A stretch of DNA of 64,000 bases from an uncultured Candidatus Saccharibacteria bacterium (GTDB lineage: Bacteria > Patescibacteriota > Minisyncoccia > Phycocordibacterales > WO2-35-19): assembly GCA_964630525.1 (NCBI GenBank), contig CAZVUY010000001.1:114901-178900 (forward strand), read 5' to 3'. Shown here piece by piece: positions 10,844-55,280 of the stretch (position 1 is its first letter; each line of letters opens with the position of its first letter). The notes under the pieces were generated by a model. That model saw nothing but the letters and a program-made list of their open reading frames with translations. It was not told the DNA's origin and did no database searches. A program made the position numbers and the translations under genes.

Positions 10844-11116
10844 TTATTTTACGGCATCCTTCAGGGCTTTTGAGGCTCTGAATTTTGGCACCCTCATGGC
10901 TGGTACACTGACTGAAGCACCAGTCCTTGGGTTCCTAGCGGTCCTCGCAGCTCTAGTTTTGGTAGAGAAGATGCCTAAGCCGGCAATCGAAACTTCACCA
11001 CCTTTTTTAAGAGCACCTACGATCTCACTTACAATAGTCTCAACCACTTCTTCGGCTTGCACCTTGGTACCACCAATCTTCTGGTGAACCACGTTGGCCA
11101 AATCTGCTTTATTCAT
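10844..11116 (-). CDS. hup: DNA-binding protein HU
   Basis: It is 90 aa and carries the HU/IHF signature ...GLGIFSTKTRAARTARNPRTGASVSVPAMRVPKFRASKALKDAV. Confidence 0.9.
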   Translation of the reverse strand: MNKADLANVVHQKIGGTKVQAEEVVETIVSEIVGALKKGGEVSIAGLGIFSTKTRAARTARNPRTGASVSVPAMRVPKFRASKALKDAVK

Positions 11117-11148: not shown

Positions 11149-11184
11149 CCCGCCCGCAACGCTCTCGCTAGCGAGGCGGGCGGG
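11149..11184. repeat. GC-rich perfect hairpin element (CCCGCCCGC...GCGGGCGGG), copy 1
   Basis: It is 36 nt with a 9-bp GC stem and an inner CTCGCTAGCGAG palindrome. An exact reverse-complement copy lies at 22147-22182. A second hairpin (GACGGAC...GTCCGTC) follows at 11197-11223. Confidence 0.6.
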
Positions 11185-11296
11185 CCCTAGTTTTGCGACG
11201 GACAGTCTCGAGAGCCGTCCGTCAACCCTCCACAATCAAGTATATATTTAAGGAGTTTTTGGAGCAATATCTTGACCAAATAACAAAAAAATTTTG

Positions 11297-11641
11297 TTAT
11301 TTTACGTGAGAGATTATTTTTTTGATGATTTCTGGCTTATCAGCTGCAATTTCCGATAGCATCTTGCGATTCAAAACAACATTTTTCTTTTTGAGAGCCC
11401 CCATAAAAACACTGTAAGAAACTCCGCTCTGGTCGAGTAAAGCGTTTAAGCGCACATTCCAAATACGACGAAAGTCACCTTTCTTGTCTCGGCGGTGAGC
11501 AAAAGCGTAGCTACCGGCGTGAGAGATGGCTTCATACGCCTGGCGTTCCTTTTTTGAGCGTCCAAAACGATATCCTTTTACTTGTTTTAAAACATTCCTT
11601 CTGGTTTTGAGTGCATTGACTCCTTTTTTGACTCTGGTCAT
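11297..11641 (-). CDS. rplT: 50S ribosomal protein L20
   Basis: The full-length sequence matches L20 (MTRVKKGVNALKTRRNVLKQVKGYRFGRSK...). Confidence 0.95.
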   Translation of the reverse strand: MTRVKKGVNALKTRRNVLKQVKGYRFGRSKKERQAYEAISHAGSYAFAHRRDKKGDFRRIWNVRLNALLDQSGVSYSVFMGALKKKNVVLNRKMLSEIAADKPEIIKKIISHVK

Positions 11642-11656: not shown

Positions 11657-11842
11657 TTAGAGATTGTTCAAGAAGCGGCCCCTTTCTTTATTAGACATAT
11701 CAATCAAAACTGATCGGCGTTTGCCGAGGGTAGTCCTGGTTCTGTTTTTTGCATTAAAATGGTTCTGGCCAATCTTGCGAGTTACCAATTTGCCATTTTT
11801 AGTGACTTTTATGCGTTTAGCGAAAGACTTGTTAGTTTTCAT
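11657..11842 (-). CDS. rpmI: 50S ribosomal protein L35
   Basis: The L35-like sequence is MKTNKSFAKRIKVTKNGKLVTRKIGQNHFNAKNR.... The track ORF extends 18 codons upstream via a TTG into the inserted repeat element. The ATG at 11842 abuts the element end. Confidence 0.8.
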   Translation of the reverse strand: MKTNKSFAKRIKVTKNGKLVTRKIGQNHFNAKNRTRTTLGKRRSVLIDMSNKERGRFLNNL

Positions 11843-11909
11843 CCCGTAGTAGATTTTGGCAATTTTTAAAAACGATTCCGTAGGAATTATTGCCAAAATT
11901 CACTACGGG
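11843..11909. repeat. ~67-bp miniature element with terminal inverted repeats (copy 2, inverted relative to copy 1), inserted between infC and rpmI
   Basis: The sequence cccgtagtagattttggc...gccaaaattcactacggg reverse-complements to about 85% identity with 309-379. In both copies the ...ACTACGGG end is followed directly by a gene ATG. Confidence 0.6.
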
Positions 11910-11923
11910 ATTCATGGGCTACT

Positions 11924-15738: not shown

Positions 15739-16743
15739 ATGAAAAATAAAAAGACCTCACCCCAAAGAAAACTAGGTCCCAAAAAATCATTGGGGCAAAA
15801 TTTTTTGAGAGATCCGAAAATTTTGAAAAAAATAGTTGATTTCGCTCAAATCGAAAAAGGTGACACTGTGGTAGAGGTTGGACCAGGCGAAGGAGGCTTG
15901 ACGGAAGAGTTGTTAAAACAAGCAAAAAAAGTAATCGCGATCGAAAAAGATGAGGAGCTAGCAAAAAAGCTGGAAGATAAATTTCGGGATCAAATTCTAA
16001 ACTCAAGACTGAAGATTTTGGTGGGAGATATATTGGAGCTGAGAGCTGAGAGCTTAGAGCTTGAAGGAAGAAATCAGAAAAACAAAAACTCTGAGCTCTT
16101 AGCTCCAAGCTATAAGCTTGTCGGCAATATTCCGTACTACATTACCGGCGCTTTGTTTAAAAAATTTTTGGAAACAGAGCAACAACCAAAATCGATCACC
16201 TTTGTTGTCCAAAAAGAAGTGGCGGAGAGGATAGTGGCCCGAAACCCCAACTCCGCTAAAGCTTCGCGGGGCAAGCAAAAGGAAAGTATTTTGAGTATAT
16301 CGGTCAAGGTATATGGGGAACCAAAATTTGGCGGAGTCATCAAGGCTGGTAGCTTCTTTCCTAAACCAAAAGTTGATTCGGCTATTTTAAGTATTAGGAA
16401 TATCAGCAAAGAAAGATTCAATGATCTAATCCCCCCAACCCCCTTTACTTTAAAGGGGGAGGAGGCTCGAATAGAAAATAATTTTTTTGAAGAAATAACT
16501 CCCCCAACCACTCTTACAACAAGAGGGGAGTTGGAAAATAAATTTTTTGAAATATTAAAGACTGGCTTTGCTCACAAAAGAAAGCTGCTACTCCGCAACC
16601 TCCTCGACGCAAAAGTGTCAAAGGGCACCTTTGACACTTTTGCGATTAAAGAGGTTTTTGGAGTTTGTGGGCTGGATGAGAAAGCGCGGGCTGAAGATTT
16701 GAGAGTGGAAGACTGGCTAGCGCTTACACAAAAACTGGCCTAA
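15739..16743 (+). CDS. rsmA: 16S rRNA adenine dimethyltransferase RsmA/KsgA carrying two in-frame insertions
   Basis: It has LGQNFLRDPKIL...VVEVGPGEGGLTEEL and NIPYYIT. It is about 334 aa against about 260-290 typical. The first insert is the palindromic AGCT element at 16035-16119. The second is a ~65-bp x2 tandem duplication at 16431-16560. Confidence 0.85.
   Translation: MKNKKTSPQRKLGPKKSLGQNFLRDPKILKKIVDFAQIEKGDTVVEVGPGEGGLTEELLKQAKKVIAIEKDEELAKKLEDKFRDQILNSRLKILVGDILELRAESLELEGRNQKNKNSELLAPSYKLVGNIPYYITGALFKKFLETEQQPKSITFVVQKEVAERIVARNPNSAKASRGKQKESILSISVKVYGEPKFGGVIKAGSFFPKPKVDSAILSIRNISKERFNDLIPPTPFTLKGEEARIENNFFEEITPPTTLTTRGELENKFFEILKTGFAHKRKLLLRNLLDAKVSKGTFDTFAIKEVFGVCGLDEKARAEDLRVEDWLALTQKLA
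16035..16119. repeat. AGCT-rich palindromic miniature element inside the rsmA reading frame
   Basis: The left arm is ggagctgagagctgagagcttagagcttgaagg, an A-rich loop follows, and the right arm is ctctgagctcttagctccaagctataagctt. The same family occurs at 22327-22420, 22831/23247, 23857-23925, 53065-53115 and 55205-55280. Confidence 0.65.
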
Positions 16744-21753: not shown

Positions 21754-22326
21754 ATGGAGGAGAGTAATAAAATATTAAAAGAACAGATAGAAAAATTGCC
21801 AACAGCGCTTAAAAATTTTGTGCTTAGCAATGAGTGGACAAAAAAATTGAGAGTATACCTGGATAGTCTTCAGCTGGAAGAGTGGCAGAAAGTTTCGGTA
21901 GAAAACGAAGTGTTTTTGATCTTGATGGGTTTCGAAGAGTATGCAAATTTACCAGGCAACATATCCGAAAATACCGAAATGGATTTTGAGGTAGCCGAAA
22001 AAATATCGGAGTTTGTAATAAAAGATATTTTGAAACCAGTAGCAGATTTGGTAGTAAAAGAATTTGAAAAATCGGAACAACCGCCATCCAGTTCAATCGG
22101 CAACTCATTCGAACGTATCATCTTAAACCAAGCGAGGGCGATGCAGCCCGCCCGCCTCGCTAGCGAGAGCGTTGCGGGCGGGCCAGCCCGCGAAGCGGGT
22201 AGTGGTAGCCAGCAACCAGCACCTAGCAGCCGGGTTCCGGACAATCTGCCGACTGAAGATTTGAAACCAAAACCTACAACACCAAATTATTCTGGGCAGG
22301 ATCCGTATAGAGAACCGGTGGAGTAG
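21754..22326 (+). CDS. Hypothetical acidic cytoplasmic protein with REP-hairpin-encoded low-complexity C-terminus
   Basis: The C-terminal residues ...ARAMQPARLASESVAGGPAREAGSG... are encoded by the GC hairpin copy at 22147-22182. Confidence 0.45.
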   Translation: MEESNKILKEQIEKLPTALKNFVLSNEWTKKLRVYLDSLQLEEWQKVSVENEVFLILMGFEEYANLPGNISENTEMDFEVAEKISEFVIKDILKPVADLVVKEFEKSEQPPSSSIGNSFERIILNQARAMQPARLASESVAGGPAREAGSGSQQPAPSSRVPDNLPTEDLKPKPTTPNYSGQDPYREPVE

Positions 22327-22420
22327 GGAGCTTGGAGCTAAAAGCTTAGAGCTTAGAGGAGAAAAATAAAAAATGATATAATTTTGAAAGCTTACAGCTC
22401 TAAGCTCTAAGCTCTAAGCT
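22327..22420. repeat. AGCT-rich palindromic miniature element filling the intergenic spacer exactly (stop-to-start)
   Basis: The sequence is ggagcttggagctaaaagcttagagcttagagg, an A/T loop, then aagcttacagctctaagctctaagctctaagct. Confidence 0.65.
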
Positions 22421-22423
22421 AAA

Positions 22424-22843
22424 ATGCGTTTTCAAATCCCACAATTCATCGACGTTGAAGATAAAATATTTGGTCCTTTTACCTTGAAGCAATTTATCTA
22501 CTTAGCCGGGGGGGCCAGTATCGCCCTCGCCTGCGTTACTATTTTCGGCTTAGTTTTGGGGCTCATGATCGCCTCACCGATCATCATCCTCGCCGCCGCG
22601 CTCGCTTTTTATAAGGTCAACAACAGACCGTTCATCAACATGCTCGAGTCTGCTTTCAAATATCTCACCAAAGACAAGCTTTATATTTGGCAAAAAAGCG
22701 AAAAAACTGAAGCTGAGATGGTGGCGGAAGAGAAAAAGTATAGCTCGGTCATTGTACCCAATCTTGGTGATAGCAAACTCAAAGACATGAACTGGCAATT
22801 GGATGTGAAGAAAAAGGAAGATGATCTATTAGCTAAGAGCTGA
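22424..22843 (+). CDS. Small two-TM membrane protein (VirB3-like position and topology)
   Basis: It is 139 aa with a hydrophobic hairpin LAGGASIALACVTIFGLVLGLMIASPIIILAAALAF. It lies upstream of the VirB4-like ATPase, as in Gram-positive T4SS operons. Confidence 0.4.
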   Translation: MRFQIPQFIDVEDKIFGPFTLKQFIYLAGGASIALACVTIFGLVLGLMIASPIIILAAALAFYKVNNRPFINMLESAFKYLTKDKLYIWQKSEKTEAEMVAEEKKYSSVIVPNLGDSKLKDMNWQLDVKKKEDDLLAKS

Positions 22844-22863
22844 GAGCTTGGAGCTTAGAGTAG
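22831..22863. repeat. Left half-arm of AGCT palindromic element
   Basis: The sequence agctaagagctgagagcttggagcttagagtag supplies the stop codon of the upstream gene. Confidence 0.55.
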
Positions 22864-22866
22864 AAA

Positions 22867-23235
22867 ATGCTAAAAACTTATAGAGATTTACTCATATGGA
22901 AAAGGTCGATAGATTTGGCAACAAAAGTATATAAAGTTACAGAAATTTTTCCAAAATCAGAAATATACGGGATTGTATCCCAAATGAGAAGATCGGCTGT
23001 TTCTATATCTTCAAACATAGCAGAGGGAAGGAACAGGGGCACAAGAAAAGATTTTGCTCAATTTTTGAGAATAGCGTTGGGTTCTACAGCGGAACTAGAA
23101 TCTCAGACAGAGATATCAAAAAATTTGAATTTTATAAACCAGATTGAATATTCACAGATAATCTCTGAGACAAATGAAATAGGAATGATGTTGCGTGCTA
23201 TAATTAGAAAGCTGGACTCTAAGCTCCAAGCTTAA
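22867..23235 (+). CDS. Four-helix-bundle protein of the '23S rRNA intervening-sequence protein' family
   Basis: It is 122 aa with YRDLLIWKRSIDLATKVYKVTEIFPKSEIYGIVSQMRRSAVSISSNIAEG, typical of the TIGR02436-like family. Half-arms of the AGCT element flank it on both sides. Confidence 0.75.
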   Translation: MLKTYRDLLIWKRSIDLATKVYKVTEIFPKSEIYGIVSQMRRSAVSISSNIAEGRNRGTRKDFAQFLRIALGSTAELESQTEISKNLNFINQIEYSQIISETNEIGMMLRAIIRKLDSKLQA

Positions 23236-23247
23236 AGCTCTAAGCTT
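23212..23247. repeat. Right half-arm of AGCT palindromic element
   Basis: The sequence ctggactctaagctccaagcttaaagctctaagctt encodes the last residues and the stop of the four-helix-bundle gene. Confidence 0.55.
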
Positions 23248-23250
23248 TTT

Positions 23251-23871
23251 ATGAAAAATGCTACTCAAGAATTTGTACCGATAGACGATGTGCGCGATGG
23301 GATAGCCATCCTCAAAAGCGGTGGGATGCGCGGCGTACTCATGGCTTCAAGCGTAAACTTCTCCCTCAAGTCAGAAGAGGAGAGGCAGGCTATCCTATTC
23401 CAATTCCAAGATTTCTTAAACTCTCTGGATTTTTCGGTCCAGATCATCGTCCAATCAAGAAAGCTCGATATCAGACCCTATATCGCCCTTTTGGAGAACA
23501 GGCACAAAGAGCAAACCAACGACCTGATGAAAATCCAGATCGAACAATACATTGCTTTCATTAGAAGTTTTACCGAATCGACCAACATCATGACCAAAAA
23601 CTTCTTCATTGTGGTCCCATATGATGCCGCCATCATCTCTACCAAAACAGGGTTGTTGGACAATTTGCGAGGCAATAGGAACAAAGAGACAAAGGAAGAA
23701 GATTTCGAAGAAAGGCGCAATCAGCTCGAGCAGCGAATGGGAGTGGTAGAGCAGGGCTTGGTGCGCTCCGGCGTCAGGGTAGCCAAGCTCGGTACCGACG
23801 AAGTGGTCGAGTTGTTTTATAAGATATTTAATCCGGGAGAAACGGAGAAACCAATCAAGCTTGGAGCTTGA
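23251..23871 (+). CDS. VirB4/TrbE/CagE N-terminal-domain-like protein (separate ORF)
   Basis: The motif IDDVRDGIAILKSGGMRGVLMASSVNFSLKSEEERQAILFQFQDFLNSL resembles the N-terminal domain of VirB4-family ATPases. Its stop codon lies inside a palindromic element. Confidence 0.5.
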   Translation: MKNATQEFVPIDDVRDGIAILKSGGMRGVLMASSVNFSLKSEEERQAILFQFQDFLNSLDFSVQIIVQSRKLDIRPYIALLENRHKEQTNDLMKIQIEQYIAFIRSFTESTNIMTKNFFIVVPYDAAIISTKTGLLDNLRGNRNKETKEEDFEERRNQLEQRMGVVEQGLVRSGVRVAKLGTDEVVELFYKIFNPGETEKPIKLGA

Positions 23872-23925
23872 AGCTAATAGCTTAGAGGAAAAAACTTTAA
23901 ACTCCAAGCTCTTAGCTCTAAGCTT
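23857..23925. repeat. AGCT-rich palindromic miniature element separating the two VirB4-like ORFs
   Basis: The sequence is aagcttggagcttgaagctaatagcttagagg, then aaaaaactttaaa, then ctccaagctcttagctctaagctt. Confidence 0.65.
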
Positions 23926-39567: not shown

Positions 39568-39618
39568 AAACCCCACCCGGCTTTTCAGCCACCCTCCCCT
39601 TGTTCAGGGGAGGGAAGG
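39568..39618. repeat. GC-rich REP-like element (ccccaccc...ccaccctcccctt-gttcagg-ggagggaagg), left copy flanking DUF559 gene
   Basis: An inverted copy lies at 40002-40049 and a direct copy at 46317-46362. Confidence 0.6.
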
Positions 39619-39626
39619 CACCACAT

Positions 39627-46316: not shown

Positions 46317-46362
46317 CCCCACCCAGCCTTTGGCCACCCTCCCCTTGGTAAGGGGAGGGAAG
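46317..46362. repeat. GC-rich REP-like element, third copy
   Basis: ccccacccagcctttggccaccctccccttggtaaggggagggaag lies immediately after the polA stop. Confidence 0.55.
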
Positions 46363-46370
46363 ACAAAAAC

Positions 46371-48239: not shown

Positions 48240-48315
48240 GCGCCCGTAGCTCAGTCGGTAGAGCAGCTCCCTTTTAAGGAGATGGTCGTAGGTTCGATTC
48301 CTACCGGGCGCACCA
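48240..48315 (+). tRNA. tRNA-Lys (anticodon UUU)
   Basis: Acceptor GCGCCCG/CGGGCGC, D-arm GCUC-AGUCGGUA-GAGC, anticodon loop CUUUUAA, T-arm GUAGG-UUCGAUU-CCUAC and an encoded CCA. Confidence 0.85.
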
Positions 48316-49779
48316 GAAAGGAAATTGCAAGTCAGAGCTCGCCGCCTCGCTCTGCTCGGCGGCTCGCGCGTATTGTATTTTCGGCTCAAAACGGAATTCG
48401 CGATTTCGCAAAACATGGTTCGCGCCGATGTTTTTTAGAAATGCTGTCATTTTGGCAAAATCATTTTCGTTAGTCAGATTCGCGGCTTGATTCAAGGATA
48501 AAACAAATTCACGAGCCGGTTCGAGCCAAGACGCTCCTTTTTGCTCGATGTCGGTAATTTTCTCCTCCAATCGCACTTTTTCATACACGAGAGAGTTCTT
48601 TTTGGCGGCGTATTCGTCTGTGGATAGCGCGTCAGAAAGATAAAGGTTGAGAAGTTTTTCGAGCTTTGCCTCAATCTGCGCGAGTTCTCTTTTTAGAGTT
48701 TCCGCTTCTGTTCGCGCTTCCTCCTTTGCTTGCTCCTCGTCTTGTTCCAACGCCGCCAAAACTTTCTTGGTGTCTTGGCCCGATAAAGAAACTTTTTGAA
48801 GATAAGTTTTGATTTGCGCGGCAAGCATAGTTTCGCTGATGTAGCGTTCCGGGCACGCGCCTCGTTTTTTGGTACAGCGATAGTAGGTATAAGAGCCACC
48901 ATTGCCTTTTGCATATTGCGCGGTAATAGAACAACCGCACGAGGCGCATTTGAGTAGTCCGAGGAACGCGAAACTGTGTTTGCGGTCTGGTCGCACCTTG
49001 CCGCGCTTTTGCATAACTTCTTGGCATTTATCAAAAAGTTTCTTTGAAATTAACGGCTCGTGTTTTCCCTCAAAAGTTTCCGACTTGTACCTCATCAAAC
49101 CAGTGTAGAAAGGATTTTGGAGTATGGACTGAACATTGCTTAATGATATTTTCTTGCCTTTGTTGCCGAGCAGTTTCTTTTTCTCACACCAATTTGCGAG
49201 AGCAGAAAGTGGATATGCTCCGGTGGCGTAGAGTTCAAACATTTTTCTCACTTTCGGTGCTTTGTCGGGGTCAATATCAATTATTCTCGTCTTGGGATTG
49301 TTGAGATAGCCCACCGGAGCCCAGCCGGGCCATACTCCATTTCGTATCTTTTGCCGCAAACCTCTTTTTACATTCTCTCTCAAATTGTCTACGAAATATT
49401 TACTCTGTCCGAAAGCAATGTTCAACATAAACAAGCCTTGTGGTGTCGGTTCAAACCAAAAAGTCGGAAACTTGAGGGAACGAATCAAGCCGCGATCAAT
49501 CAGATGTATGATTTTGCCTCCGTCCACCGAATTTCGGGCAAGGCGGTCGGGGTGCCACGCGATAATGCCGTCTGCTTTTTGTCGTTCAATCAATGACAGC
49601 ATTTCTGCGAACTTCGTTCGCCCGGGCTCTTTTGCGGTTTTCGCCTCCTCAAAGGAGGCGACAATTTCAAGTTTTTCTTTGACGGCGAATGCGCGCAACT
49701 CTTCAAGTTGCGCCTGAATAGAAAGCACCTGTCTGTCCTCTTCCTCTGTACTTTTTCTTGCGTAGAGTATGTATCTCAT
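48301..49779 (-). CDS. Large serine recombinase (resolvase/invertase catalytic domain + recombinase domain + zinc ribbon)
   Basis: It carries YARKST and the active-site Ser region, ...VGYLNNPKT..., CxxC...C, and a coiled-coil C-terminus. The ORF reads through IR-A into the tRNA, so the true 3' end is uncertain. GC content is visibly higher than in flanking genes. Confidence 0.8.
   Translation of the reverse strand: MRYILYARKSTEEEDRQVLSIQAQLEELRAFAVKEKLEIVASFEEAKTAKEPGRTKFAEMLSLIERQKADGIIAWHPDRLARNSVDGGKIIHLIDRGLIRSLKFPTFWFEPTPQGLFMLNIAFGQSKYFVDNLRENVKRGLRQKIRNGVWPGWAPVGYLNNPKTRIIDIDPDKAPKVRKMFELYATGAYPLSALANWCEKKKLLGNKGKKISLSNVQSILQNPFYTGLMRYKSETFEGKHEPLISKKLFDKCQEVMQKRGKVRPDRKHSFAFLGLLKCASCGCSITAQYAKGNGGSYTYYRCTKKRGACPERYISETMLAAQIKTYLQKVSLSGQDTKKVLAALEQDEEQAKEEARTEAETLKRELAQIEAKLEKLLNLYLSDALSTDEYAAKKNSLVYEKVRLEEKITDIEQKGASWLEPAREFVLSLNQAANLTNENDFAKMTAFLKNIGANHVLRNREFRFEPKIQYARAAEQSEAASSDLQFPFWCAR
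48309..48408. repeat. ~100-bp perfect inverted repeat IR-A (partner 49826-49925) bracketing the serine recombinase; begins inside the tRNA-Lys 3' end
   Basis: gcaccagaaaggaaattgcaagtcagagctcgcc...cggaattcgcgatttcg has an exact reverse complement at 49826-49925. Confidence 0.7.
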
Positions 49780-49825
49780 GTTGTTTTGATTGAATTAAGG
49801 ATTAAAAATTTTTCTTCCCCTCAAA

Positions 49826-49925
49826 CGAAATCGCGAATTCCGTTTTGAGCCGAAAATACAATACGCGCGAGCCGCCGAGCAGAGCGAGGCGGCGAGCTCT
49901 GACTTGCAATTTCCTTTCTGGTGCA
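49826..49925. repeat. IR-A' (inverted copy of 48309-48408)
   Basis: It is an exact reverse complement of IR-A. The 26-bp IR-C ggattaaaaatttttcttcccctcaa (49799-49824) precedes it, and its partner is at 50061-50086. Confidence 0.7.
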
Positions 49926-50012
49926 GGATACTTGAATTAGTGCGAACCCACCGCGCCTTCGGCGCGGCACAACCCCCGCCAAAAATGCAGGCGGCGAAGC
50001 CGCACCGCTCAA
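49921..50012. repeat. ~92-bp perfect inverted repeat IR-B (partner 51006-51097) bracketing a membrane-protein gene
   Basis: gtgcaggatacttgaattagtgcgaacccaccgcgccttcggcgcggcacaacccccgccaaaaatgcaggcggcgaagccgcaccgctcaa has an exact reverse complement at 51006-51097. Confidence 0.7.
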
Positions 50013-50257
50013 AACCGCAAAAGAGCCCGGAAAAAACATCGGCGCGAACCATGTTTTGAATTGAGGGGAAGAAAAATTTTTAATCCAATAAATTCCCAAG
50101 GAAGAAGCCGCAATCGTGCGGATTTTTCGTTGCCCTTGACGTAAGGTACGGAATATGCTATGCTTATTTGCGAAAGATTGAGCCATGGTGGCTTGGTCGC
50201 AATAGCACATTTTCAACTCAAAAAACGGAGGTGCAGCTTGAGCGCAGAAACGATTGG

Positions 50258-50849
50258 CATGGTTTCTGGGCTGTTGGTGGTGGCGAGCGTCATCCCTTAC
50301 AGCATCAGAACCCACCAGGGCAAGGTGCAGCCGAACCTGACGAGCTGGTCGCTCTGGACGCTGATCGGCCTCGCCCTCTTGCTCACTTACAAGAGTTCGG
50401 GTGCCGAAGCGAACGTCTGGCCAGCGGTGTTCGGGTTCACTAACCCGCTCCTCATCACCTTGCTTGTTCTCAAACAGCATGGTGGGTGGACGAAGCCAAA
50501 CCGAGTCGAGGTCGCTTGTCTCGTGTTTGGCCTGTTGTCTCTCGGCCTGTGGCTGGGAGTTCGCGAAAACAAGGAGATGGCCCAATGGGCTCTCTATCTG
50601 GCAATTGTCGCGGACTTGTTCGCGGCGATTCCCACGATTGTGTTCGTGTGGACGCAACCGAATGGCGACCGACCGTTTGCTTGGGCGTTCTTCGCCGTCG
50701 GCTATGGTCTGGCAATCTTCGCCATTACCGAACACACCTTCGCGAACTACGTTCTCCCGCTCTACATGTTCTTCGGAGCGTTGAGCGTTACTCTCCCACT
50801 CGTTCTGTATCGGTGGCGACACAAAGTCCCGTTGTCGGAGTGGGTATGA
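50258..50849 (+). CDS. Hypothetical polytopic membrane protein (about 6 TM) inside IR-B/IR-B' segment
   Basis: The sequence from MVSGLLVVASVIPYS... onward is GC-rich. The track ORF starts at 50160. The antisense ORF 49821-50975 is an alternative that I judge spurious. Confidence 0.45.
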
Positions 50850-51005
50850 GTCAGAGACGAATAGCAAATCCGAGGCCCCTTGTGGTAGCAACATCACCAC
50901 TTGGGGCCTTTCTTCTTTTTGATTTGTTTGGTTATTTTTCATACAATACATTTGGTGTTTGCTTCGCAAACTCACATTTATTCGCCGTCAAAGAAAAACT
51001 TGAAA

Positions 51006-51097
51006 TTGAGCGGTGCGGCTTCGCCGCCTGCATTTTTGGCGGGGGTTGTGCCGCGCCGAAGGCGCGGTGGGTTCGCACTAATTCAAGTATCCTGCAC
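51006..51097. repeat. IR-B' (inverted copy of 49921-50012)
   Basis: It is an exact reverse complement of IR-B. Confidence 0.7.
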
Positions 51098-51280
51098 AAA
51101 ATAGCGGAGCAATTTTGTGCGCCCGAGCAAGCAAACTGCTTTGCTTGCGGGTAGGAATCGAACGGCGGAATGTGAAATTTGGAGCACCAAATTTCCATGA
51201 GCCGGTGCCCAGACCAAAAATTTGTGACTGACAAATTTTTGAGTCGAGGGAGATATTCCTACCGAGATTTTATTATTATC

Positions 51281-52655: not shown

Positions 52656-53264
52656 ATGACTAAAACCCAAAACCCCAATATCGTCGTTGTTTTAAATGAT
52701 ATAAGGAGTAACGAAAATGTCGGCTCGATTTTTCGTACCTGCGATGCGGCTGGCGTCTCCAAGATTTTTTTATGTGGCTACACTCCAGCTCCGGTTGACC
52801 GATTTGGCCGGGAAAACAAGGGGTTGACCAAAGCGTCTTTGGGAGCCGAGAGGTGGGTTCTGTGGGAAAAAGTAGAAAGTTTGCAGGGGGCTATTGAAAA
52901 AATTAAGCAGCTTCCTTCGGGGAATTCTCAAAAATGCACGGATATTTTCTTGCTAGAAAATTCCTCGTGCTCGGCTCAGTCAGCCTCGCAAGGCATTTTT
53001 GATAACACCCACTCAGGAAGCTGCTTAGTGGTTGGAGTCGAACAATCAGAAAATTCGATTGATTACCGCGAGCTCAAAAAATCTACGCTCCTAGCTTCTA
53101 GCTCTCAGCTTGCTCTTGTTTTTGGAAATGAGGTAGGTGGTTTGTCTCAGGAAGACTTAAAACTTTGTGATCTGGTGGCCGAAATTCCAATGCATGGTCG
53201 CAAAGAGTCCCTCAATGTGGCCGTCTCAGTGGGTGTCGTCCTGTTTTCGTTAGTAGCTGACTGA
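52656..53264 (+). CDS. SpoU/TrmH-family RNA 2'-O-methyltransferase with in-frame insertion
   Basis: It has NVGSIFRTCDAAG, LVFGNEVGGLSQEDL and a C-terminal SPOUT knot. An inserted segment at about 52900-53115 ends in an AGCT-element arm (53088-53115). Confidence 0.8.
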   Translation: MTKTQNPNIVVVLNDIRSNENVGSIFRTCDAAGVSKIFLCGYTPAPVDRFGRENKGLTKASLGAERWVLWEKVESLQGAIEKIKQLPSGNSQKCTDIFLLENSSCSAQSASQGIFDNTHSGSCLVVGVEQSENSIDYRELKKSTLLASSSQLALVFGNEVGGLSQEDLKLCDLVAEIPMHGRKESLNVAVSVGVVLFSLVAD

Positions 53265-55204: not shown

Positions 55205-55280
55205 AAAGCTTAAAACTAAGAGCTTTTAGCTTAGAGTGTAAGGGAATAAACTTCAAGCTCCTAGCTCTCAGCTCTAAGCC
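55205..55280. repeat. AGCT-rich palindromic miniature element between mutM and murE; encodes the last residues and stop of the Mur ligase
   Basis: The sequence is aagcttaaaactaagagcttttagcttagagtg, then taagggaataaact, then tcaagctcctagctctcagctctaagcc. Confidence 0.6.

Follow-up and report, generated by a model that had tools for sequence, protein, structure and literature searches.

How does one 36-nt GC-rich palindrome come to occupy both the spacer between two genes and the inside of a third? The question is raised by a 64-kb stretch of DNA from the genome of an ultra-small bacterium of the Candidate Phyla Radiation (CPR); this stretch was analysed as a whole and is called the window here. 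The palindrome, referred to below as the 36-mer or the element, is present once between rplT and hup (site 1) and once within the open reading frame (ORF) 21754-22326 (site 2):

11149..11184, minus strand, copy 1 of the 36-nt GC-rich palindrome, reading CCCGCCCGCCTCGCTAGCGAGAGCGTTGCGGGCGGG on this strand, in the rplT-hup spacer
22147..22182, plus strand, copy 2 of the palindrome, in frame in ORF 21754-22326, where it encodes PARLASESVAGG

The answer that we favour is that the 36-mer is probably a member of a family of miniature mobile palindromes, whose copies in the window are solo and geneless, and we propose that the family is mobilised by a GIY-YIG nuclease.

On the plus strand the sequence at 11149-11184 is CCCGCCCGCAACGCTCTCGCTAGCGAGGCGGGCGGG, and its exact reverse complement lies at 22147-22182, just as an initial annotation of this DNA had described the pair. 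The identity reaches 37 nt when one flanking base is added (11149-11185 versus 22146-22182). In the 64-kb window there is no further match with up to 3 mismatches, and none of the 100 dinucleotide-preserving shuffles gave any match to the 36-mer. Seen from local transcription, the two copies point the same way, since site 1 has its genes on the minus strand and site 2 its ORF on the plus strand. In the predicted fold, 9-bp GC arms (CCCGCCCGC/GCGGGCGGG) give way to a 2x2 internal loop, after which 4 bp of inner stem (CGCU/AGCG) close a loop of 6 nt, with an RNA folding energy of about -27.6 kcal/mol; the term “perfect hairpin” used in the initial annotation is therefore inaccurate. The extreme GC content that it pointed out was confirmed: the GC content of the window is 0.43, and a scan for GC-rich stems found eight hairpins of comparable strength in 64 kb, of which the two copies are the strongest. 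No Rfam 15 family matched either copy at the gathering score, a transfer-messenger RNA (tmRNA) and three tRNAs being the only RNAs found in the window. A clustered regularly interspaced short palindromic repeat (CRISPR) was rejected on spacing, as the copies in the window are 10,960 nt apart and other loci have 1-2 copies per 8 kb.

The clearest evidence for insertion comes from site 2, which has the following features:

21754..22326, plus strand, hypothetical protein, host gene of copy 2, in a conserved type IV secretion-like cluster
22183..22191, plus strand, CCAGCCCGC, which repeats the 5' arm of the element directly at 8 of 9 positions; resident Pro-Ala-Arg codons, target-like
22186..22198, plus strand, small resident hairpin CCCGC-GAA-GCGGG with a GCGAAGC core, shared by filled and empty alleles and outside the insert

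Copy 2 is read here as ...MQPARLASESVAGGPAREAG..., in agreement with the initial annotation. The surrounding cluster, with PrgI, TraC-like and VirB4/TraG-like ATPase genes downstream, is conserved in Paceibacteria-type CPR genomes, and there is no NCBIfam family for this ORF or for the small GIY-YIG ORFs described below. The 12-residue insert comes after the invariant motif ILNQAxAMQPAR, at the point where a variable linker begins. The orthologue P0002 (87% identical; 178 aa versus 190 aa) is without exactly these 12 codons, and the 12 residues are absent in 11 of the 15 aligned homologues. At the DNA level, the syntenic locus L001 reads ATGCAA|CCGGCCCGCGAAGCGGGTAGT where the window reads ATGCAG, the 36-mer and CCAGCCCGCGAAGCGGGTAGT, a clean 36-nt difference, and the empty junction of L001 and L002, ATGCAA|CCGGCCCGCGAAGCGGG, compares in the same way with ATGCAG, the 36-mer and CCAGCCCGCGAAGCGGG in the window.

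The filled allele is found at the same codon boundary in L003, L143 and L157, with an identical 36-mer. The L003 and L143 proteins are only 36-43% identical, yet the 36 nt are identical; nearby synonymous sites differ and the identity ends at the element. Three distant orthologues (P0009, P0013 and P0017) also have the same peptide and identical 36-nt DNA with diverged synonymous sites on the flanks, and in L141 and L144 decayed and expanded versions stand at the same place. Whether orthologues lack the segment, a point which the initial annotation had raised, has a divided answer: it is missing in the close orthologue P0002, while P0009, P0013 and P0017 retain the peptide. The 9-mers that flank the insert match at 9 of 9 positions in L143 and also in L141, where both are CCTGCCCGA; the pair in L160 is CCGGCCCGC/CCAGCCCGC, and CCGGCCCGC, the 5' arm of L160, is the 9-mer of the empty allele.

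These repeats bear on a non-mobile explanation, in which the 36 nt would be an ancestral segment of the ORF family, lost repeatedly through slippage between 9-nt repeats, and the copy near hup a one-off ectopic gene conversion. Flanking direct repeats of 8-9 nt favour precise deletion, the exact variant is almost restricted to this ORF family, and the decayed copies of L141 and L144 indicate that the segment is old in some lineages. Besides, the ORF family is mosaic: P0009 and P0010 have divergent N-terminal two-thirds and a C-terminal third nearly identical to that of the window, which points to within-gene recombination between lineages, and alleles have thus been exchanged. Against this explanation stand the base-sharp boundaries of identical 36 nt in such divergent proteins, together with the distribution of the arms and the independent alleles at other loci given below, and we consider it improbable.

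Site 1 gives a second set of alleles. Its features, in the order of transcription, are as follows:

11297..11641, minus strand, rplT (ribosomal protein L20; Pfam), upstream of copy 1
11239..11267, minus strand, TTGCTC-N17-TATACT block, upstream of hairpin B and kept in every lineage compared
11197..11223, minus strand, hairpin B, GACGGACGGCTCTCGAGACTGTCCGTC, a resident structure of the hup leader, in all close relatives
11185..11187, minus strand, GGG run in the minus-strand reading, directly 5' of copy 1
10844..11116, minus strand, hup (HU family DNA-binding protein; Pfam), downstream of copy 1

The Pfam assignments of both genes support the placement of copy 1 between rplT and hup on the minus strand in the initial annotation; it lies 113 nt past the rplT stop and 33 nt before the hup ATG. 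The GGG at 11185..11187 is probably the resident G-run target beside which the element inserted. The second GC-rich hairpin reported earlier at 11197-11223, our hairpin B, is indeed present, and it turned out to be a conserved resident of the hup leader that lies outside the mobile family. In L131, both sides of one of its stem pairs are changed (A to G and T to C) and the pairing is preserved. The loop of hairpin B, GGCTCTCGAGAC, is constant across lineages (L131, the orthologous positions of L146-L154 and the P0036 lineage) while the stem varies; for hup the hairpin may serve as an RNA regulator or, with its CTCGAG core, as a palindrome bound by a protein. The TTGCTC-N17-TATACT block, which scored under the threshold in a consensus scan, may be the hup promoter, in which case hairpin B and the 36-mer would both be located in the 5' untranslated region of hup.

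Nine relatives, whose HU proteins are identical or 98-99% identical, have the same flanks, and in them an unrelated 38-nt AT-richer hairpin, TTTTGTCGTCCAAGCAATTGGGCGCACAAAAGGAGGGG, replaces the GGG and the 36-mer; as a dispersed repeat, this hairpin has no further copy in any sequence compared. SRR13355620 carries the 36-mer at site 1, and its assembly broke inside the repeat. In the P0036 lineage (HU 89% identical), four contigs are empty at site 1 and read GAGAAGTGGGGGG|TCGAGAG; the empty junction, GTGGGGGG|TCGAGAG, places the insertion point between the G-run and TCGA. Two further contigs of this lineage are filled at the same point, with GTGGGGG, a 29-nt insert (CCCGCCCGCCATGACGGCGAGTCGGGCGGG) and TCGAGAG, the insert being a different hairpin that bears the same arm. 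Another lineage (L155/L156) has nothing at site 1. The window allele minus the 36-mer has the layout of the empty allele, namely hairpin B, 9 nt, the G-run and TCGA. As the closest relatives have the AT-rich hairpin, the window allele would have to be derived by way of an empty intermediate that was not sampled, or by the exchange of one hairpin for the other in a single step.

The position before hup also bears on the explanation that the hairpin is a functional regulator, either the terminator of the rplT operon or an mRNA stabiliser or terminator like the repetitive extragenic palindromic (REP) sequences, with the copy in the ORF being incidental. The stem-loop is very stable, and as the closest relatives have a different hairpin at this position, the presence of some hairpin there may be favoured. 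The lineages L150-L156, in contrast, are without any second hairpin at this place. The terminator function assigned to copy 1 in the initial annotation is not borne out: the hairpin is followed by TCGAATTTAAC with no T-run, the terminator scan called no terminator at the 36-mer, and the element lies downstream of the promoter-like block, just before the hup ATG. A better candidate for the terminator is an AT-rich hairpin followed by T's just past the rplT stop (about 11301-11279). With the evidence from coding copies and tmRNA genes below, we regard a regulatory role as an unlikely origin of the repeat.

The order in which the two sites were filled can be read from contigs that span both:

SRR12487014 (single contig), AT-rich hairpin at site 1, site 2 empty
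SRR12897917 (single contig), AT-rich hairpin at site 1, site 2 filled
JGI contig (single contig), AT-rich hairpin at site 1, site 2 filled
The window, 36-mer at site 1, site 2 filled

Since single contigs pair the AT-rich hairpin at site 1 with a filled site 2, site 2 was filled before site 1. Copy 2 is also more widely distributed among the relatives than copy 1 and is found in strains without the element at site 1, and copy 1 would have arisen recently within the genome, as a copy of the rare centre variant that the two sites share. In general, the insertion is a discrete 36-nt block, and where the arm match at the target is longer a short direct repeat results. On the alleles compared, the 36-mer behaves clearly as a discrete palindromic unit that is polymorphic for insertion.

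To place the 36-mer in a wider range of genomes, we searched species-representative genomes with the degenerate pattern CCCGCCCGCNNCGCNNNNNNNNGCGNNGCGGGCGGG, in which the arms are fixed. At least 119 loci match the pattern; since the arms are fixed, the arm conservation, the family size and the proportions of taxa are biased. The taxa, labelled as in the records, are distributed as follows among the matches listed:

CPR, about 48 loci
Verrucomicrobiota, about 52 loci
Bdellovibrionales, 4 loci
Margulisiibacteriota, Lentisphaerae and a few other groups or unclassified metagenome-assembled genomes, single loci
High-GC genomes with unrelated centres, about 7 loci

The high-GC matches (Streptomyces, Methylobacterium, Dactylosporangium and others) were set aside as chance matches because their centres are unrelated. 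Among the matches listed, the main centres are ATCGCTACGCGAAGCGTT (61 copies), CTCGCAAGCGAGAGCGTT (15 copies), which is one base off the variant of the window, and CTCGCTACGCGAAGCGTT (10 copies), and the flanks are different at every locus, so that the 36 nt form a discrete unit. The family thus delimited would consist of a conserved 9-bp arm (CCCGCCCGC...GCGGGCGGG) and a variable, self-pairing centre of about 18 nt, and would range over CPR/Patescibacteria, Verrucomicrobiota and a few other lineages. The exact variant of the window has 1 genome locus among these matches and one contig in the metagenome collection (L004, from Hainich groundwater); in the genome and metagenome scans it is confined to the ORF 21754-22326 family and site 1 of the window. 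The genome-wide census that had been suggested for the 36-mer therefore speaks both ways, the exact variant being rare and members of the hairpin family standing at at least 119 loci with different flanks. The idea of a dispersed palindrome able to land in coding sequence has held up, given the empty P0002 allele and the family loci elsewhere. That the same arms and related centres occur in unrelated genes, tRNA fragments and tmRNA genes across phyla argues against the ancestral-segment explanation.

No match to the main variant was found in 50,697 phage records or 72,556 plasmid records, and a scan of IMG/VR gave 2 contigs, of uncertain meaning. An artefact of assembly or library preparation was rejected, as the family was recovered independently, in short-read as well as long-read assemblies, by many laboratories.

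For the loci below 47% GC, the flanks show a common feature. With both flanks folded together, GG 5' or CC 3' of the element was found for 23 of 42 elements and GGG or CCC beside it in 15 of 42, where a rough expectation from base composition is about 8% and about 2%, respectively. Arm direct repeats of 7-9 nt are found at site 2 and in L143, L141, L068 and L078; flanking duplications range from 0 to 9 nt, and the copies in tRNA D-loops have none. From these counts it is clear that the element stands beside G-runs, C-runs or arm-like sequence above chance, as judged by the flanking letters. In the subfamily of the window, 17 of 19 copies have the same orientation relative to local transcription.

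In L023 (about 123-136) and L030 (about 1692-1705) the element stands directly beside a perfect DnaA box, TTATCCACA, and some copies may sit in or near replication origins. Together with the location of copy 2 within a lineage-conserved type IV secretion-like cluster, these two loci would suit a cis-acting site recognised by a protein of the host or of a plasmid, such as an inverted repeat of the kind found at an origin of transfer (oriT/nic), or a DNA-uptake signal. Orthologous clusters work without the element, as the empty alleles show, other copies are in DnaE, UvrD, UvrB, tRNA fragments and elsewhere, and 2 copies per 64 kb are far too sparse for an uptake signal, which makes this explanation very unlikely.

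Coding sequence is a common location of the family. In the low-GC loci, 19 copies lie within ORFs of 300 codons or more, and 16 of them stand in frame 0, reading PAR-x6-AGG. The hosts include the following:

L125, DnaE, in-frame host
L031 and L119, UvrD, in-frame hosts
L038, UvrB, with two tandem copies
L016, MiaA, in-frame host
L120, MiaB-like enzyme, host
L060, TsaD, host

These counts demonstrate, within the loci scanned, that the family tolerates or prefers in-frame coding positions, and the location of most CPR members inside coding sequences is a further point against a regulatory role. UvrD provides another pair of alleles: seven genomes including the window are empty at GLF|PH, and two are filled at exactly that boundary with different variants. 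The independent filled and empty alleles here and in the hup leader of the P0036 lineage are hard to reconcile with a segment that does not move. ORF 21754-22326, UvrD and the hup leader each have an orthologous site that is filled in more than one lineage, in two of the three cases with different members of the family, which suggests preferred targets.

The neighbourhood of the element offers one candidate for a mobilising enzyme. We clustered 1268 ORFs within 1.5 kb of elements, and it turned out that GIY-YIG is the sole recurrent enzyme family; in the same clustering, no REP-associated tyrosine transposase (RAYT), other transposase or insertion sequence (IS) was recurrent near the element. 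An iterative profile search of all ORFs of the loci found small GIY-YIG ORFs adjoining the element in at least 14 loci. These are about 80 aa long and contain the catalytic domain only (Pfam PF01541; six ORFs, E about 1e-15 to 1e-19). Where such a gene and the element stand together at a tRNA or tmRNA gene, in at least 14-16 loci, the family hairpin of these cassettes lies within about 100 nt of the nuclease gene. We confirmed the tRNA and tmRNA contexts with ARAGORN and Rfam, and three layouts were distinguished:

Layout 1 (L050, L074, L096, L058, L040 and L036), a tRNA 5' fragment with the 36-mer in the D-loop, the ORF, then an intact tRNA
Layout 2 (L010, L110 and L113), an intact tRNA and the ORF, followed by a duplicated 3' fragment of the tRNA whose T-arm holds the 36-mer
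Layout 3 (nine loci), the ORF, 30-85 nt, a G-run and the 36-mer, which shares 2-3 nt with the 5' GGG of a tmRNA gene

As far as these loci go, the family is clearly in physical linkage with minimal GIY-YIG genes at tRNA and tmRNA genes. Lying at one end of the small ORF, 5' or 3', a cassette hairpin could protect the mRNA, which would suit a regulator; both loop orientations are seen in the same tmRNA context of layout 3, which speaks against one. L041 has a hairpin-interrupted fragment without the ORF. In the window there is no GIY-YIG gene and no association with tmRNA: smpB is located upstream of the tmRNA gene, with neither a hairpin nor a GIY-YIG gene.

Within layout 1, at 2748-3154 of L074, two direct copies of CAGTTGGTA-(36-mer)-GAGCAA bracket the GIY-YIG ORF and a complete tRNA-Thr, whose D-loop has GGCA, not GGTA; beyond the bracketing copies, on the outside, are the halves of a second tRNA-Thr. 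The arrangement looks like a Campbell-type or homing product that carries its own variant tRNA.

Other GIY-YIG cassettes (L068 and L040) have different palindromes at the same kind of junction, and that of L068 is built from local sequence (CCTGCC-TACC-GGCAGG-CAGG-CCTGCC). Such cassettes suggest an alternative in which the hairpin is a repair patch, laid down at breaks made by the GIY-YIG or another structure-specific nuclease, with solo copies marking off-target breaks. The cassette hairpin stands exactly at the junction within the duplicated tRNA fragment, the palindrome at that junction can be of another kind or locally derived, and at site 1 one hairpin apparently replaced another, all of which fit a patch. 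The centre of the 36-mer family, in turn, is conserved across phyla and unrelated to local sequence, and must therefore be copied from a template. A repair patch, which departs from a mobile palindrome only in which component is selfish, appears to us to have little probability.

For the mobile palindrome that we prefer, the following mechanism is proposed. The GIY-YIG nuclease would make breaks in the DNA that allow the hairpin and the nuclease's own cassette to be copied; copying, insertion or repair would take place at the DNA level and be guided by microhomology. Solo hairpins, such as the two in the window, would be non-autonomous passengers mobilised in trans. Coding copies may persist where the reading frame yields a small flexible PAR-x6-AGG peptide in a tolerant linker, and the copy in the hup leader may merely add a strong stem-loop, so that neither copy would need a host function. 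Two specific routes were also considered, one by template switching at the arm and one with a free hairpin oligonucleotide as primer; neither gives the observed junctions unambiguously.

Several points weigh against the mobile palindrome. The case rests on the comparison of alleles, and no event of transposition was seen. Among the closest relatives, site 1 holds the other hairpin and is not empty, and target-site duplication is inconsistent. Occupancy of the same site in distant orthologues could mean old insertions instead of a hot spot. The 64-kb window is without the GIY-YIG gene that is proposed as the source of mobility, and the family was found by a fixed-arm pattern, with the biases in arm conservation, size and taxon shares that this brings. 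The exact variant is rare, with one genome locus and one metagenome contig outside close relatives, and for this variant vertical descent with allele exchange within the ORF family could also account for its distribution.

A more far-reaching form of this proposal is put forward tentatively, and we hold it to be possible but short of an even chance. The 36-mer would be the non-autonomous form of an undescribed class of mobile element, whose autonomous form is a cassette of the GIY-YIG ORF of about 80 aa and the palindrome. This cassette would invade tRNA and tmRNA genes at the D-loop, the T-arm or the 5' end and keep or restore an intact copy of the gene. The nuclease would recognise DNA structure (a hairpin or cruciform) and no long recognition sequence, and by acting on structure it would spread solo hairpins in trans across CPR, Verrucomicrobiota and other phyla, to become fixed as in-frame PAR-x6-AGG modules of 12 residues in essential proteins. 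The GIY-YIG/hairpin cassette has a fair chance of representing a new class of element. We found no description of the 36-mer sequence or of GIY-YIG/hairpin cassettes in the literature searched, coverage of which was incomplete, so that an earlier description is possible.

The element was compared with known systems of small repeats. Rickettsia palindromic elements (RPEs) are about 100-150 bp long, are known from Rickettsia only and are not known to have an associated enzyme. Reportedly described by Ogata and colleagues in 2000, they resemble the 36-mer as selfish palindromes that stand in frame in protein genes, essential ones too, and in RNA genes, yield a short tolerated peptide, and have orthologues with filled and empty alleles. 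In-frame insertion with empty orthologues, which is characteristic of RPEs, is thus also found in the 36-mer family. The length and sequence of RPEs are not: the element here is 36 nt (12 codons), has no sequence similarity to RPEs, is linked to GIY-YIG genes and occurs in several phyla, with CPR and Verrucomicrobiota as hosts.

REP sequences lie outside genes, carry a conserved tetranucleotide of the GTAG type on the 5' side and rely on a transposase of the Y1 (IS200-like) kind. The REP doublets that form hairpins (REPIN) and the RAYT system resemble the family, of which the 64-kb window holds 2 copies, in the form of dispersed imperfect palindromes of 20-40 nt and in the principle, proposed here, that one repeat-flanked enzyme gene mobilises solo copies. 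The copies here, in contrast, are often intragenic, have no conserved tetranucleotide and have GIY-YIG as the neighbouring enzyme. The REP-type membership suggested in the initial annotation was consequently not retained, as there is no GTAG-type flank, no RAYT transposase nearby, and many copies are intragenic. Miniature inverted-repeat transposable elements (MITEs) are 50-500 bp long, derive from identifiable IS elements and have target duplications of fixed length. MITEs and Correia-type repeats are likewise small and non-autonomous, with terminal inverted repeats and a possible location in transcribed regions; the arms of the 36-mer are also inverted repeats, but the duplications are 0-9 nt and there is no IS nearby. 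The element therefore fails the defining features of a REP, a MITE, a terminator and a CRISPR repeat.

The mobile GC clusters of yeast mitochondria (PMC4478555) and the repetitive hairpin elements (RHE) of sponges (PMC2800124) are GC-rich palindromes of 30-50 bp that are mobile in an AT-rich genome, mostly intergenic and occasionally in genes; homing-endonuclease genes are found in the same genomes, and no mechanism of insertion is known. These repeats differ from ours in being organellar and eukaryotic and in having other sequences and flank rules, and a fixed nuclease cassette at tRNA or tmRNA genes is not known for them. T4 SegB is a free-standing GIY-YIG homing endonuclease in a tRNA gene region (PMC2330249). 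The cassettes resemble the Seg loci in the position of a GIY-YIG gene by conserved RNA genes and in retaining an intact target gene, as would be expected for a selfish nuclease cassette. Seg proteins and I-TevI are larger and have DNA-binding domains, unlike the ORFs of about 80 aa with the catalytic domain only, and the cassettes here have a duplicated piece of the target gene broken up by a palindrome, a feature that is not known from Seg loci. An intact gene for the GIY-YIG catalytic domain stands beside family members elsewhere and not beside the window copies. By analogy, the closest systems in behaviour appear to be the RPEs of Rickettsia and the GC clusters of yeast mitochondria.

Besides the 36-mer, other repeats were observed in the window. 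A second palindromic family consists of AGCTNAGAGCT-type hexamer periods that form long hairpins:

16037-16118, AGCTNAGAGCT-type repeat
22329-22420, AGCTNAGAGCT-type repeat
22831-22861 with 23216-23246, AGCTNAGAGCT-type arm pair
23858-23924, AGCTNAGAGCT-type repeat
53088-53110, AGCTNAGAGCT-type repeat
55214-55280, AGCTNAGAGCT-type repeat

The arm pair brackets a 23S_rRNA_IVP / bAvd-like four-helix-bundle gene (22867-23235), like an intervening sequence with a loop ORF, and in relatives this gene is elsewhere in the cluster or absent (L141 and L157 versus L001). The copy at 16037-16118 is in frame within a KsgA-like ORF (15739-16743), a KsgA/RsmA-like methyltransferase that has three variable in-frame insertion regions among relatives. 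One of these insertions is encoded by a CCCTCCCC...GGGGAGGG hairpin (peptide PPLGKGR) in L001 (4549-4571) and L143 (5228-5250), so that in-frame palindromic insertions in this lineage extend beyond the 36-mer family. Intergenic copies (91% identical) of the hairpin GCCACCCTCCCCTTGnnnAGGGGAGGGAAGnCA, of the same family as the KsgA coding copy of L001, are located at 39588-39620 and 46333-46365.

Longer inverted repeats are also present. The segment 302-386 pairs with 11836-11916 over 53 nt (89%) and 25 nt (96%), connecting the infC-rpmI spacer and the start of rpmI with a site 11.5 kb away, and may be a duplicated leader or promoter, or a regulatory structure of L35/L20. At 48240-51104, a tRNA-Lys (48240-48315) is adjoined by 99-nt inverted repeats with 100% and 97% identity:

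48310-48408 and 49826-49924, first pair of 99-nt inverted repeats
49914-50012 and 51006-51104, second pair of 99-nt inverted repeats

Several additional exact inverted repeats of 26-29 nt lie in the same region, which together point to a segment that can invert or was duplicated recently, or to an integrated element. The cumulative GC skew has its minimum near 12-13 kb, between divergent genes, where the gene orientation switches, and in relatives dnaA is about 8 kb beyond the secretion cluster.

If the mobile palindrome is correct, it would be a bacterial counterpart of RPEs and GC clusters with a candidate mobilising enzyme, a minimal GIY-YIG nuclease, and with unusually clear natural alleles of the filled, empty and replaced kinds. 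How such tiny palindromes move is an open question for RPEs and GC clusters, and the cassettes with their defined targets would make it testable. For annotation, hairpin-interrupted tRNA fragments by small GIY-YIG ORFs should not be annotated as tRNA genes or introns, and the element would account for some assembly breaks, as in SRR13355620. It would also account for some of the 12-residue low-complexity insertions in CPR proteins, and would mean that even the very small genomes of CPR bacteria tolerate selfish insertions inside DnaE, UvrD, UvrB and similar genes.

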